A DNA stretch of 64,000 nt, from assembly GCA_951406725.2 (NCBI GenBank), contig OX597839.1:2046001-2110000 (forward strand), written 5' to 3'. The DNA comes from Octopus vulgaris (lineage: Eukaryota). The position numbers were made by a program, and so were the translations under genes. The notes under the pieces were generated by a model. That model saw nothing but the letters and a program-made list of their open reading frames with translations, ran no database searches and was not told the DNA's origin. Positions within the stretch are counted from its first letter, which is position 1, and each line of letters starts with the position of its first letter. Positions 8,247 to 56,480 of this stretch are shown one piece after another.

Positions 8247-8414
8247 ACTTCTGTGGTTGTTGCTGGTGCTACTCTGCTTGGGTTTAATGTCTTACCAAAT
8301 CATTGACCGAATAATCTACTACTACAGCTGGCCAGTCACCGTGAACGTCGACATCAACTACAACAAAACATTAATCTTCCCCTCTGTAACAATATGCAAT
8401 CAAAATGCTTTCCG
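8247..8414 (+). CDS. DEG/ENaC exon: TM1 and post-M1 signature
   Basis: ttacag|A...CG|gtaagt; LLWLLLVLLCLGLMSYQIIDRIIYYYSWPVTVNVDINYNKTLIFPSVTICNQNAFR matches the family FPxVTxCNxN motif. Confidence 0.95.
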
Positions 8415-9296: not shown

Positions 9297-10400
9297 GCTT
9301 CGTCACTCACCACTCCTAAAACCATTACAGTTTTTGGACACTGTGCGCATCATCCTGTTGACATCAGAGGACATGCACATAACCATCGGTCATTTCTCCA
9401 GCTCAACTTTCGGTGCTGGTCAAAATTTTTCTCATTGGTGAAGAACTAAAGCAGGTCATGTTCGAGGGTTTTAACTTTGTTAAGTAACCACTTGGTACGA
9501 ATCAGTTTTCCTGTTTTGCAGTCACGAATTGGCCTATACACAGTACACACTACTTGTATCGAATGTCTTCGTGCACCCCAATTCTGATAGTCCAATCCGA
9601 CACCTGAAGTTCTTCGTTGATGGCTCTTATTGATTTTCCGGGGTCATCATCACCGACAATACTTTCTATCCTTTGCATCAGTTATGATGTCCTCATGGTG
9701 TCGGAACGTTTAGAATATTTCTTTTCTCTTTGATTCAGTTGAAACATTGCCACCAGAGGCTCCCAAATTATCGCCACTAGAGGCTCCCAATATATCGCCT
9801 CCAGAGGCTCCCAGAATATCGCCACTAGAGGCACCCAAAATATTACCACAAGAGGGTGCCAAAATATTGCCACCTGAGGGTCCCAATATATCGCCGCTAG
9901 AGGCTCCCAAAATATCGCCACCAAAGGCTTCCAAAATATCGCCACCAGAGGCTCCCAGAATATCGTGATTAGAAGGTCCCAAAACATTTCCACCAGAGGC
10001 TCCCAAAATAAAGCCACCAAAGGCTCTCAAAATATCGCCACCAAAGGCTCCCAAAATATCGCCACCAGAGGCTCCCAGAATATCGCGACTAGAAGGTCCC
10101 AAAACATTTCCACCAGAGGCTCCCAGAATATCGCCACCAGAGGCTCCCAGAATATCGCCACCAAAGGCTCCCAGAATATCGCGACTAGAAGGTCCCAAAA
10201 CATTGCCACCAGAGGCTCCCAAAATATTGCCACTAGGGGCTCCCAAAATATCGCCACCAGAGGCTCCCAAAACATTGCCACCGGAAGCTCCCCAAATCCA
10301 TCAGAGCTTTATCTACAAAATATCTTACAACATCTAGAAAGTTGCAAATTTCTACACTTGCGGTTCTGCGTACATGGCAAATACCCTTGCACACTGTGTA
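9297..10400 (-). mobile_element. Degenerate maT/DD37D-type transposase fragment containing a minisatellite
   Basis: EICNFLDVVRYFVDKAL...STESKRK/YSKRSDTMRT...FFTNEKNFDQHRKLSWRNDRW...VMVLGVVSDE with stops and frameshifts. Confidence 0.75.
9742..10290. repeat. 24-bp minisatellite, about 23 units
   Basis: Unit ccaccagaggctcccaaaatatcg; - strand reads (LGASGGDI)n. Confidence 0.95.
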
Positions 10401-11689
10401 AAGTATACACTATGCGCCTGATTTAAATATATCTTCTTGGATACAAGCTCATCTTTCTAGCACGCGCAGATGTAAAATATCTAGAAACTGTTATACCAAG
10501 GGAGGGTAAACGATATTAAAAAAATCAAAATAAAATGAAATAAAATAAAATAAATTAGGAATCCTTGAGGGAGAGTTACCGAGAAAATAACTTCTGATTA
10601 TATACAAAATTAGTGGAATACAGAAATAAACACCGGAATGTAACGGAAGAAAGCAAATATCAAGATTGCTAATAAGGCCCTTTTTTTTTTGCTTTCTAAA
10701 AAGGACACTTTCTGTTATTTTCCGCAATGAATATCTCCTTTTCACATAACTATGATTTCATTTTAATGCTTCTCACACACACACGTGTGTGTGTGTATGA
10801 ATGTATGTAAGTATGTATGTATAAATAACAACAGATGGATAATATGTCAATCCACTACAATTGTTTCAGGCGGCGAGCTGGCAGAAACGTTAGCACGCCG
10901 GGCGAAATGCGTAGCCGTATTTCGTCTGCCCTTACGGTCTGAGTTCAAATTCCGCCGAGGTCGACTTTGCCTTTCATCCTTTCGGGGTCGATAAATTAAG
11001 TACCAGTTACGCACTGGGGTCGATATAATCGGCTTAATCTGTGTGTCTGTCCTTGTTTGTCTCCTCTGTGTTTAGCCCCTTGTGTGTAGTAAAGAAATCC
11101 ACTACAATTGTTTCCAACGAACTTATAATTACTGGAGGCACGACATCATAAGAAAAACACATTTTTATCAGGTGAATACATAAATCACATAATTCATAAA
11201 CGTTCAAGAGCCAGCTGCCTGTGCCACTTCGTGATTCTATGACCATTGTTGGTCATAGAATGAAGAACCTCACTCAGAATCTGCTCCTTGCGTACATCCA
11301 GCGTATATTATGGGTCATACATTTAGTGCAATGTATGTTTCTTGATCAACCTCAGGGCTATTTATATACTCAGTCGGGTACAGTTAATCGTATACATAAC
11401 CTGAATATCTTTCTGCTCTACATCGGTACCCGCTGATGTCTTCCTTTATTTTTGTTCTGTACACATTTTATTTTTCGACCCAGCCGTTTAAGTGCTCGAT
11501 TCACTCGAATCCTGATCTATTATAATATGTGTGTATGTCTCTTCTATTTTTTAATTATTATAAATCTTCCACAGAGAAGGGAGCCAGTTTCCGACAAAGA
11601 TTCAAGGCTCCATCTTTGGGACGTGGTTAACACAGACAAATTCACATTTGGAACTTGAGAAAAGTCTTGCATATTTTTACTGTTCCACT

Positions 11690-35741: not shown

Positions 35742-35797
35742 TATTATTATTATTATTATATAAGCACACACATGCATTTTTGTTTCTTGTTTTGTAG

Positions 35798-37319
35798 CTG
35801 AAATATTGGATCTTGTACGCAAAACGTGCGTTTGTCCAGTTCCGTGCAAATCTTTACTGTTTGAGCCAACAGTCTCTTATGCCACGACATCGACTTACGC
35901 CGTTCAGTCTCTCATGAATCGCATCTTGAGTACCGGCGTCAAAGAAAAATTCATTCGAGCCAGAGAAGTCACCAACCGCATGCAACTCAAAGTCTTCAAC
36001 AGAACAAGGGATTTGTTAATCAACCTTGAAAACAGTTTTCGCCCAATTAAAGCCTTCTTCGATGTCGATCTCTCCAATCGTATCAACAGCCAAATTGAAA
36101 TTATTAACAATTTGTATAACACCACCAAAGAACAATGGGCGCTAAAACAGGATCTGAATAAATACCAGATATACGTCACCGAGAAAAATTTCATTCGTGG
36201 AAGGGAAGCCATGGAAGAAAGGACACTGAAATATTTGGGCTTCGATTTTATCAGTTTCGTTTTTCGAATGGATGAACAGATTAGAAGTCTCGTCGACCCA
36301 GAAATTATTACAAAAAACCTTAAAGACATGATCTACTTTCTAATTAATAGGGATTGTAAGGAACACCTTCAGAAAAATATGAAAGCTCTTGGAAACTACA
36401 CTGAATTATACGATTCTTTAACGAATGGAATACCAATTTTCAGATATAAATATAAGAAAATTCCCCGGAGTCATAACCTCCATATAGTACCGCGACTGCT
36501 TTTCAACAGGTCACTCACTTATTCTAATTATTCAAAAAAATATAGTCGCATGGTTCCATTACGTATCAATGAAATTATAGAATATCTCGGAGAATACATG
36601 GAATTAGCGAACGACACTTACCAAACGGGTATATTGAATATGAGTAGGTTAGACATTGTATCTCACCGTTATGGCAAGGCCTGCAAGAACTACAACTTCG
36701 CTAAAAGCGCATTCTATTATTACTGTCTCGATTGGGCTTTAGAAGAAGTGAAGAAGAAAGAAGTAGACTTTCAAATGCTTTGGAATGATTACGAAAATGT
36801 CGCCAAAGATATAATGCTTAATCTAAATAACGTCAATTCCCTACTTTCTTCTCTTCAGGCGAACATAATCGCAGATTTGGATGCTGGTATTAAGTTAGCA
36901 AACGATTACTTAAACGATACAATCTCCAAGAGACGATTAGCTTCCATGTTAAGTTCACAGAAAACTTACGAAGGTGTAAATAATTTACAAGCCTTCTTTA
37001 GCGAAGTTCGATCCCGAGGAACATTGCTCTATGACAACTGGAAAAAATTGTCGCAAGCTTCCGTTGCCATTTGGAAGTCTATTTTCATGGATGAAGACTG
37101 CTTTGAATATTACAACTTTGCTAATATAACGCAGTTCCAGGAAAATCCGGGCGATAAGATAAACGAAATAGAACGAACTCACGAGGACGTCCGGAATGTG
37201 TACGACTTTCGTCATCTCATTGGAAACAAGGATCGAATTTTATTTCACGATTTCAAAAAGATTCTTAACGACATGAATAATTTTGAAGAATCTTTGAAAA
37301 TAGACGACAAATTTATGAG
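35798..37319 (+). CDS. DEG/ENaC giant exon: end of thumb, palm strand and about 455-aa knuckle insertion
   Basis: ttgtag|CT...AG|gtaagg, 1522 nt with no stop; starts AEILDLVRKTCVCPVPCKSLLFEPTVSYA and ends EESLKIDDKFMR; corresponds to ORF 35806..37323. Confidence 0.92.
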
Positions 37320-37361
37320 GTAAGGGTCAAGATCTTAATTTTGCAATACAATATAACACTC

Positions 37362-39635: not shown

Positions 39636-39727
39636 GGATAACATTTTAGAATTAGCTGTTTATTACCGAGAATTAAGCTACGAAGAAATCAAGCACCAAA
39701 TTGGCTACTATTTCTTTTCACTCCTCT
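39636..39727 (+). CDS. DEG/ENaC exon: last palm strands to start of TM2
   Basis: ttgcag|G...T|gtaagt, 92 nt; DNILELAVYYRELSYEEIKHQIGYYFFSLL. Confidence 0.95.
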
Positions 39728-41631: not shown

Positions 41632-41753
41632 GTGACATTGGAGGATCTATGGGTCTTTTTCTTGGAGCTAGTGTTTTGACAATTTTCGAAATTGCCGAGT
41701 TTTTCTTTGGCCAGTCTTTGAGGGCTGCTTTCCAAGTCCAACGTTCAAGATAA
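41632..41753 (+). CDS. DEG/ENaC terminal coding exon: TM2/selectivity filter and short C-tail
   Basis: tttcag|GT...TAA; [40 protein letters not shown]. Confidence 0.93.
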
Positions 41754-55616: not shown

Positions 55617-55940
55617 CTAATCAGCTCTCTCATGGTGAAACACACCCTTCGGTTCCGGCTTTGCGACATACATCTTCCTCACACTGTTATTCATCATGAA
55701 GTCAACGGAATGATCAATGGGTTTCACAATGAAAGGGATACAACCAAGACCAACAAAAGTCGTGGTCCACCGACGAACACCGACCGGTAACGAAGCTGTC
55801 TTCTTCAGTAGGTAATTAGTACCGGCACATAATCGATTGATAGTAAATCCAGGAATTGCTACAGATGCCAGCCCTTGCCAAACAACTGTGTCTGCCATGG
55901 CTATCATGCGGTTCTTCGTAACATTTGATTCGTCAGATTT
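55617..55940 (-). CDS. MTFP1: Mitochondrial fission process protein 1 (MTP18), last coding exon
   Basis: ttttcag|AAA...TAG on - strand; KSDESNVTKNRMIAMADTVVWQGLASVAIPGFTINRLC...RRWTTTFVGLGCIPFIVKPIDHSVD matches MTFP1 motifs DTxxWQxLASVAIPGFTINR and IPFIxxPID. Confidence 0.95.
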   Translation of the reverse strand, partial: KSDESNVTKNRMIAMADTVVWQGLASVAIPGFTINRLCAGTNYLLKKTASLPVGVRRWTTTFVGLGCIPFIVKPIDHSVDFMMNNSVRKMYVAKPEPKGVFHHERAD

Positions 55941-56480
55941 CTGAAAATTAAATCAAAATTATTATAATCAAAAGCATAATATGGATATCAGATTAATTAC
56001 AAGATACAATTTAAGATAACTAGACTGTTATATTCTATTAGTCCGCAATCTTTGTACTAAGATGACAATATATGGGTTGAGAAATATTTCACTGCTATTT
56101 CTAGCAGACCAGTAACCACCTGCAGCAGGTTCAATCATGAGCTGAGTTTTAAAAAATGCTGCAGTAAGGAATTGAATAATTAAATGAGAAGAAGAGAATA
56201 TAACACACACACACACACACACACACATGTATGCATCTATTTATGTGTGTGTACATATATGTATATATATTTGTCGGGTCTTTGCAGTCACAGCATATCT
56301 CCAGAGAACTCGGTCTTTCATCATTGCCACTGTGAGGCCCAACATATATATATATACATATATATATATAATATATATATATATAAATATATATATACAT
56401 ATATATACATAATGCATACATACATATATACATCATACATACATACATATATACATAATACATACATACATATATACATA

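Follow-up and report, generated by a model that had tools for sequence, protein, structure and literature searches.

The knuckle of a DEG/ENaC channel from Octopus vulgaris is longer than that of vertebrate acid-sensing channels by 456 residues, which are encoded within one giant exon and are predicted to fold into a long helical rod. We call this insert the tower. The channels that carry it form a real and conserved subfamily that is undescribed in the literature searched. The octopus gene lies in a 64,000-nt stretch of contig OX597839.1, which is called the window here and to which the coordinates refer.

The giant exon (35798–37319, plus strand) is 1522 nt long, has the ends tttgtAG and GTaagg, and contains an open frame of 507 codons. 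A sequence-only reading of the window had described it as a stop-free exon with canonical splice ends between exons of 57 and 92 nt, and this description is confirmed in the sequence. The exon series of 168, 165, 125, 182, 154, 57, 1522, and 92 nt together with a last exon yields the protein QHX41506 (P0024, 957 aa) from residue 96 onward with one mismatch. Residue numbers below follow P0024. The features of the gene are as follows.

8247..8414 (+), exon of 168 nt with TM1 and beta1, by match to QHX41506
20549..20713 (+), finger exon of 165 nt, by match to QHX41506
22971..23095 (+), beta-ball and palm exon of 125 nt, by match to QHX41506
28510..28691 (+), palm exon of 182 nt, by match to QHX41506
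29407..29560 (+), thumb exon of 154 nt, by match to QHX41506
34146..34202 (+), thumb exon of 57 nt, by match to QHX41506
35798..37319 (+), giant exon of 1522 nt, entered in phase 1 and left in phase 2, which encodes the thumb end, beta10, helix a6 of the knuckle, the complete insert, and the start of a7, from sequence, contigs, and full-length model
35848..35931 (+), beta10 (residues 397–409) and knuckle helix a6 (412–424), in the full-length model
35938..37293 (+), tower insert (residues 427–878), nearly all helical in the predicted models and in no Pfam family
35986..36222 (+), predicted long helix A (residues 443–521; 79 residues, ~12 nm), ended by a conserved motif at residues 503–522
36157..36759 (+), putative distal four-helix bundle (residues 500–700), from structure alignments and column conservation, 25 of its 201 columns, sequon N579 among them, being conserved to at least 70%
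36400..36699 (+), stretch divergent between paralogs (residues 581–680), from comparison with the paralog on the same contig
36640..36912 (+), predicted long helix B (residues 661–751; 91 residues, ~14 nm)
39636..39727 (+), exon of 92 nt with the end of a7 and beta11–beta12, from QHX41506, spliced contigs, and full-length model
41632..41753 (+), last coding exon with TM2, DIGG, the GAS belt, and the stop codon, from QHX41506 and spliced contigs

The isoforms QHX41506 (957 aa) and QHX41507 (936 aa) are complete and differ solely at the N-terminus; a search of the 64-kb window and the preceding 10 kb did not reveal the two alternative first exons. Another O. vulgaris protein, P0003, is 100% identical across the giant exon, and its model ends at the exon end, without TM2. 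The public models P0003 and P0020 lose TM2 because an in-frame stop follows the donor site of the giant exon, and many unnamed matches end likewise. At 37306–37319, the window encodes Lys where the GenBank isoforms and two of the four sequencing runs described below encode Asn, which is likely a polymorphism. Intronic sequence at 9878–10423 is a tandem repeat with a unit of ~24 nt and a period of 8 residues in translation, and apart from it the intron sequence of the gene is rich in microsatellites and dispersed repeats. Downstream of the channel gene, on the opposite strand, 55620–55952 (−) holds an exon of the mitochondrial fission protein MTP18/MTFP1 (PF10558, E 8e-12).

The size of the insert was determined from the protein. 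The last thumb Cys (C396) and the D of DIGG are separated by 522 residues; the ASIC2 chain of 6l6p has 66 there by hand count, and the difference is exactly 456. The same number of codons had been predicted from the DNA. The homologous exon of vertebrate ASIC1 is 154 nt long, and the protein arithmetic agrees with this length. Over 468 aa, the insert contains 9 N-X-S/T sequons, 4 Cys, 7 Pro, and 13 Gly. Its highest hydropathy over 19 residues is 0.95, compared with 2.36 for TM1 and 1.73 for TM2. These values reproduce the sequon and Cys numbers of the sequence-only reading, along with its remarks that Pro and Gly are few and that no run resembles a membrane helix. Among the members, the best Cys column is conserved in 43%; judging from the alignment, the four Cys are not conserved and provide no defining disulfide frame. 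A self-comparison of the insert gave no internal repeat (best off-diagonal probability, 6%).

Of 24 sequencing runs listed for the giant exon, 20 contain half or more of its words; none is recorded as RNA, the RNA status being a guess of the search tool. We examined contigs from four runs that belong to four studies. Positions 35796–37320 were covered without an internal joint in all four, by a single contig in three runs and by two overlapping contigs in one. The same contigs run on into the exon at 39636–39727 and then into the TM2 exon, and the intron flanks there are uncovered; therefore, they represent spliced RNA. The giant exon is spliced in whole. Exon inclusion, which had been proposed as a check, was thus seen in four of four runs, with no internal splicing of the exon in the contigs. 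A minor form that skips the exon may exist, because contigs drop rare variants. A>G differences from the window occur at 36107, 36978, and 36990 in the RNA-like contigs; two are synonymous and the third replaces Asn483 by Ser in organism B, and they reflect either editing or alleles.

The core of the protein is that of a DEG/ENaC channel. It matches the ASC family (PF00858) with 314.8 bits against a cut-off of 23.6, in two stretches. According to hydropathy and the full-length model, two membrane helices flank an ectodomain that is rich in Cys and divided into palm, finger, thumb, and knuckle. The pore motifs are intact (HG at 82–83, the small residue Cys918 at the DEG site, and GAS at 929–931). 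Compared with solved structures, the core gave its best scores of 203, 199, and 175 bits with the vertebrate ASIC1/ASIC2 and BASIC structures (6l6p, 7cfs, and 9mky), 130 bits with beta-ENaC, and 113 bits with FaNaC; it is closer to ASIC and BASIC in this ranking by score, which is not a tree. Like vertebrate ASIC1, ASIC2, and BASIC (clade A), the octopus channel has the order TM1–palm–finger–thumb–knuckle–TM2 and the HG and GAS motifs. However, besides having a longer knuckle, which in ASICs is short and made of two helices, it lacks H73 and K211 of ASIC, whose positions are taken by Val127 and Ser246 when the protein is aligned with human ASIC1. These two residues are described as proton determinants of ASICs in passages of PMC10507113. 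In the model, ~790 residues lie between TM1 and TM2, whereas the ASIC ectodomain has ~300 residues according to a passage of PMC9949801. Passages of the same paper on published trees report no true ASIC in the molluscs sampled. By sequence, the octopus tower channel is a DEG/ENaC channel on the ASIC side and is not an ASIC.

The insert is widely distributed. The giant exon matched 177 clusters (50% identity clustering, E ≤ 0.001), the best 150 of which were listed. Twenty long clusters were looked up; 19 carry names, and all of these are lophotrochozoan, from molluscs, nemerteans, annelids, and one brachiopod (Haliotis, Patella, Babylonia, Pecten, Ruditapes, Mytilus, Octopus, Lineus, Tubulanus, Capitella, Dimorphilus, and Lingula). 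This range is a lower bound, the names having come from 20 of the 150 listed clusters and the remaining 130 being without names. A cuttlefish cluster, with one member from Acanthosepion pharaonis and 11 Logan members on contigs of 2.2–3.8 kb, carries the insert at 46% identity. Homologues in other molluscs, raised earlier as a possibility, were therefore found, and the family reaches nemerteans, annelids, and a brachiopod as well. As far as these alignments indicate, the insert is the mark of an old subfamily across Lophotrochozoa and no novelty of the octopus.

The insert and its exon have been inherited with the channel. The anchors on either side of the insert are 521–526 residues apart in 32 of the 39 stored proteins that have both, near-identical members included. 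Among the 151 proteins on the profile, 90 reach the exon end without running into beta11 or TM2, and 68 of these 90 stop exactly there, as the genomic frame of the window does at its donor site; the members therefore have this exon and its 3′ intron in common. Trees of the core and of the insert, calculated for 28 members, have a patristic correlation of 0.66 (0 of 2000 permutations) and share 10 of 25 splits, or 8 of 13 when well-supported core splits are considered. The trees are unrooted, have no outgroup, and consist of tower-family members only. Their agreement indicates that the insert was inherited together with the channel. A second subgroup, which comprises annelids, Lingula, and some nemertean genes, has 30–50 extra residues near the insert end.

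Three open copies of the giant exon are present in the O. vulgaris genome, namely this one, a paralog with 79% identity on the same contig, and a paralog with 30% identity on C3. The same-contig paralog is inverted and ~365 kb away (L002, G000:C26:1716316-1717836, minus strand, with L008), and it has the open giant exon plus the two following exons. Its DNA identity is 99% at residues 781–830 and 74% at residues 581–630, which hints at gene conversion. Some proteins of the family carry further low-complexity sequence: P0144 has a Thr/Glu-rich stretch of ~250 residues inside the C-terminal part of the tower, and P0142 has an acidic His-rich stretch ahead of that part. The intronless DEG/ENaC gene L004 (G000:C24:45924584-45926230), probably the octopus FaNaC, has a Pro/Asn-rich knuckle stretch of ~100 residues; to judge from this sequence, clade B channels, too, can accommodate extra residues in the knuckle.

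The structure of the giant-exon product is predicted with high confidence (AlphaFold, 61-row alignment; pLDDT 91, pTM 0.79; five models at 90–91). The full-length model has a pLDDT of 84 and a pTM of 0.58, with a normal core mostly at pLDDT 80–94, and runs in the order beta10 (397–409), a6 (412–424), insert (427–878), a7 (883–889), and beta11–12 (890–909). The insert is predicted to be a rigid rod, in which two long helices lead out from the knuckle and back with stacked four-helix bundles. At 1.5 Å per residue, the helices of 79 and 91 residues correspond to ~12 and ~14 nm. Structure alignments divide the insert into one bundle at about residues 500–700 and a second one formed by the lower long helices and the residues to ~880; we infer the labels "distal" and "proximal" from helix order and alignment ranges. 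The seating of the rod on the channel core is uncertain in the model, as its pTM of 0.58 indicates. An extracellular helical domain between the knuckle helices a6 and a7, which had been suspected from the sequence, is supported by the models, conservation, and splicing.

Structural neighbours of the insert were generic. Foldseek gave no match at E ≤ 0.001 in the PDB, where the best match was the McpZ sensor domain (E 0.017), or among viral models (BFVD). Searches of Pfam, NCBIfam, and PDB sequences gave no family for the insert, the sole Pfam family common to the members being ASC, and an Atlas search with the insert alone gave no usable match. The top Z scores were 10–13, with designed bundles first and bacterial sensor domains next; Z values below ~13 are common for any helical bundle. 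The distal bundle aligned with the Tsr, PcaY, and Adeh_2942 sensor domains at Z 10.1–10.7, the stacked McpZ sensor aligned over 308 residues with an rmsd of 11.9 Å, and talin, alpha-catenin, and FAT bundles were close behind (Z 8.4–8.9). The sensors of bacterial chemoreceptors (McpZ, 8f7n; Tsr, 2d4u; PcaY, 6s18) resemble the tower in being extracellular four-helix bundles threaded on long helices. However, the identity is 4–10% and the TM score is 0.15–0.20, in addition to the Foldseek and rmsd values given above. The resemblance appears to be one of common arrangement, with no sign of shared descent, and the model comparisons establish neither a new fold nor a relative for the insert.

Another reading considered was that the exon is an ORF captured from a transposon or virus, either neutral or removed by splicing, because a single intronless block of 1.4 kb could come from one insertion event. 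The whole exon is nevertheless included in all four runs and is conserved across four phyla, the members share no Pfam family except ASC, and no viral fold matches at E ≤ 0.001. This explanation is extremely improbable; as a reading of the present-day exon it is refuted by inclusion and conservation, and an ancient origin of this kind is all that is left of it. The sequence-only reading had recognized no transposase, reverse transcriptase, or integrase in the insert, in agreement with the lack of transposon or viral matches in Pfam and BFVD. An origin from a viral fusion protein is rejected for now, the matches to HA2 and spike helices being coiled-coil similarities at the level of composition (E ≥ 0.006).

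Conservation is unevenly distributed along the tower. In the stalk parts, 0 of 57 and 2 of 51 columns are conserved to at least 70%, compared with 5 of 31 for the base, 25 of 201 for the distal bundle, and 14 of 129 for the proximal part. Residues A434, E436, R440, D858, F861, and F885 at the base are conserved. Compared with the paralog of 79% identity, the exon has a dN/dS of 0.54 as a whole and of ~1.6 at residues 581–680, a value based on ~9 synonymous changes that gene conversion may blur. These 100 of 507 residues contain 41 of the 105 amino-acid differences between the two (Fisher p 1.6e-7, for a window picked after seeing the data). In the contig of organism B, 7 of 10 differences are synonymous, where about one-fifth of sites are synonymous, and in the three other runs all 8 listed differences are synonymous. 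The insert is open and conserved, neither disrupted nor drifting neutrally. We infer that the head is the functional end of the tower, given that conserved columns concentrate there and that the paralog diverges mainly in the same bundle.

The reading that we prefer, tentatively and with somewhat less than even confidence, is that the octopus protein is an expressed channel of an old lophotrochozoan subfamily, probably DEL-10-like, and that its pore is opened by a secreted or cell-surface partner on binding to the distal bundle. Three rods of ~14 nm would stand upright on the trimer. The ASIC ectodomain is 8 nm high, and on this basis the tower head would be ~20 nm from the membrane. The partner could bind the distal four-helix bundle there, and binding would shift the long helices, as in the stacked-bundle bacterial sensors, which serve here as an analogy and not as homologues. 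The shift might then travel via a6 and a7 into palm strands beta10 and beta11–12 and from there reach the TM2 gate. The ligand would most likely be a protein or peptide and not protons, and the expressing cells would most likely be neurons.

The glycosylation sites bear on another reading, in which the tower is part of a force-from-filament mechanosensor; the glycosylated rod would link the channel to matrix or mucus as a lever or tether, and the pore would open when the rod is pulled or sheared. In alpha-ENaC, the knuckle is described as a contact with the extracellular matrix, and N-glycans of the palm and knuckle are required for shear sensing (PMC6955349). However, alpha-ENaC belongs to clade B and has two glycans on an ordinary knuckle, whereas the tower is a folded domain of 456 residues. 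The 9 sequons of the insert, one of which (N579) has a counterpart no more than 2 residues away in 52 of 60 rows, and the talin and alpha-catenin bundles among the fold matches are consistent with a tether. Most sequons drift, however; five of the nine are in place in just 4–11 of 60 rows. The median number per member is 9. The conserved polar motifs of the head also suggest specific binding instead. We regard force gating as rather unlikely.

The near-fixed length of the stalk and the median of 9 sequons fit a tether or a spacer equally well. If the tower were an anchor or spacer, it would bind a partner across the synaptic cleft or in the matrix and place the channel, and gating would proceed via a ligand at the ordinary sites of the finger and thumb. 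The stalk is almost fixed in length while its sequence drifts, like a molecular ruler, and the model keeps the finger, thumb, and palm whole and folds them well. Nevertheless, the insert is joined to both knuckle helices beside the palm strands, and the conserved base residues suggest coupling to the gate. The anchor is an unlikely explanation on balance. Ligand gating, tether, and anchor all require a binding partner of the tower and differ in the effect of binding. The sequence-only reading had suggested that a tower on the trimer could serve as a tether, a ligand sensor, or an adhesion module.

Expression data are available for four tissues. The O. vulgaris gene corresponds to c33413_g5 (MN081800, "ASIC1 X2"), an ASIC candidate in PMC12919962, in the passages available. 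The two isoforms are recorded in Table S3 of that paper at 6.3, 5.3, 9.4, and 5.4 CPM and at 6.9, 7.2, 6.2, and 5.6 CPM in the tip of the arm, supra-oesophageal mass, sub-oesophageal mass, and optic lobe. A second ASIC candidate in the same passages (c28071, MN081801, 923 aa) is recorded at 7.1, 1.1, 4.6, and 0.4 CPM over these tissues. By its N-terminus, the 923-aa MN081801 protein matches P0054, a paralog of the C3 type. The arm-tip bias of this paralog (7.1 CPM against 0.4 CPM in the optic lobe) favours the mechanosensor, whereas the even expression of the tower gene in brain lobes and arm tip argues against it. Central as well as peripheral expression is also compatible with an anchor. Isoforms at 5–9 CPM in the arm tip, both brain masses, and the optic lobe suit a neuronal receptor better than a touch sensor confined to skin.

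A probable relative is DEL-10 of C. elegans (T28D9.7, NP_495302.3), whose sequence is printed in Supplementary file 4 of PMC9822975. By hand count, it has 414 residues from the last thumb Cys to the D of CDIGG, which corresponds to an insert of ~348 residues. DEL-9, MEC-4, DEG-1, and the others printed with it have short knuckles, and DEL-9 has no insert. DEL-10 and the octopus channel both have a large insert at the same place in the knuckle, between beta10 and beta11, and both have Cys at the DEG site. The first-helix motif of DEL-10, chosen by eye, scores best at residues 432–446 of P0024, in the expected register (3 of 2000 shuffles); a C-terminal motif is also in the expected register, at a score that is not significant (828 of 2000 shuffles). 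A feature comparison in the Atlas ranked clusters of nematode proteins of 866 and 973 aa nearest (scores 0.96 and 0.95), and one of the two is named del-10; NCBI labels several tower members "del-10". A profile search over proteins of 1057–3015 aa, a weak search that relies on shared words, gave no relatives among 6379 candidates and did not return DEL-10. Read by eye and with one short motif, the two inserts are probably homologous.

The two inserts differ in length between their anchors. In DEL-10, 146 residues lead from a Tyr-Tyr anchor to the D of DIGG, compared with 133–153 in the second subgroup, and 192 lead from the first-helix Ala to this anchor, compared with 372–393 (all by eye). 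DEL-10 thus has ~190 residues fewer between the anchors, a difference that matches the distal bundle in size, and it has an acidic linker ahead of the first helix. It appears to lack a piece the size of that bundle; therefore, the head would not be needed in every lineage.

In passages of PMC9822975, published trees place DEL-9 and DEL-10 with ASIC and BASIC, and DEL-10 is an orphan channel. In oocytes, DEL-10 by itself gave a current like that of controls at pH 7.4 or 4, according to passages of PMC10424705. This result would fit a modulatory or non-gating subunit that works only in heteromers with its paralogs and in which the tower sets assembly or trafficking; three paralogs are indeed present in the O. 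vulgaris genome. However, a figure legend among the same passages puts DEL-10 with the channels whose current is blocked by amiloride at pH 7.4. The intact pore motifs also speak against such a subunit, and a 14-nm domain exceeds the needs of assembly. We consider it very unlikely. A broader form of the preferred ligand-gated reading is possible but doubtful, namely that a protostome-wide class of tower channels including DEL-10 has on its knuckle a chemoreceptor-like stacked helical sensor of ~14 nm, which gates the pore remotely on binding a protein ligand across a synaptic cleft or in the matrix, so as to make the channel an ionotropic receptor, and that it may replace the ASICs lost in molluscs. 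The sequence-only reading had stated that no DEG/ENaC channel with this architecture is known to be characterised. This holds insofar as the insert was undescribed in our searches, but DEL-10, probably a shorter form, has been cloned and examined in oocytes, with no stimulus identified.

No description of the insert was found in the literature, including the passages available from PMC12919962, PMC9822975, PMC10507113, PMC9949801, PMC9234716, and PMC10148893; subscription journals were mostly outside the search. The passages of PMC7992859, PMC7933985, PMC6010301, and PMC10374624 likewise contain nothing on it. The whole words "insert" and "extracellular" are absent from the main text of PMC12919962, as far as it was available. 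Two tower proteins of Lingula belong to the data set of PMC10507113, whose passages make no comment on the insert. The DEL-10 insert is dropped in trimmed alignments, and such trimming may be a reason why family trees overlooked the tower.

The stimuli that gate DEG/ENaC channels are protons, peptides, proteases, and force, which act via a compact ectodomain of fixed design. The tower subfamily more than doubles this ectodomain by a folded rod on the knuckle, which would provide a new gating surface. It also offers a concrete structure for testing the long-debated tether model. Both octopus "ASIC" candidates for nociception in print are tower channels that lack the proton determinants of ASICs, and this label needs revisiting. 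Finally, C. elegans del-10 is available as a mutant strain and as an oocyte clone, and through the probable link to it the function of the tower can be tested in a genetic model.
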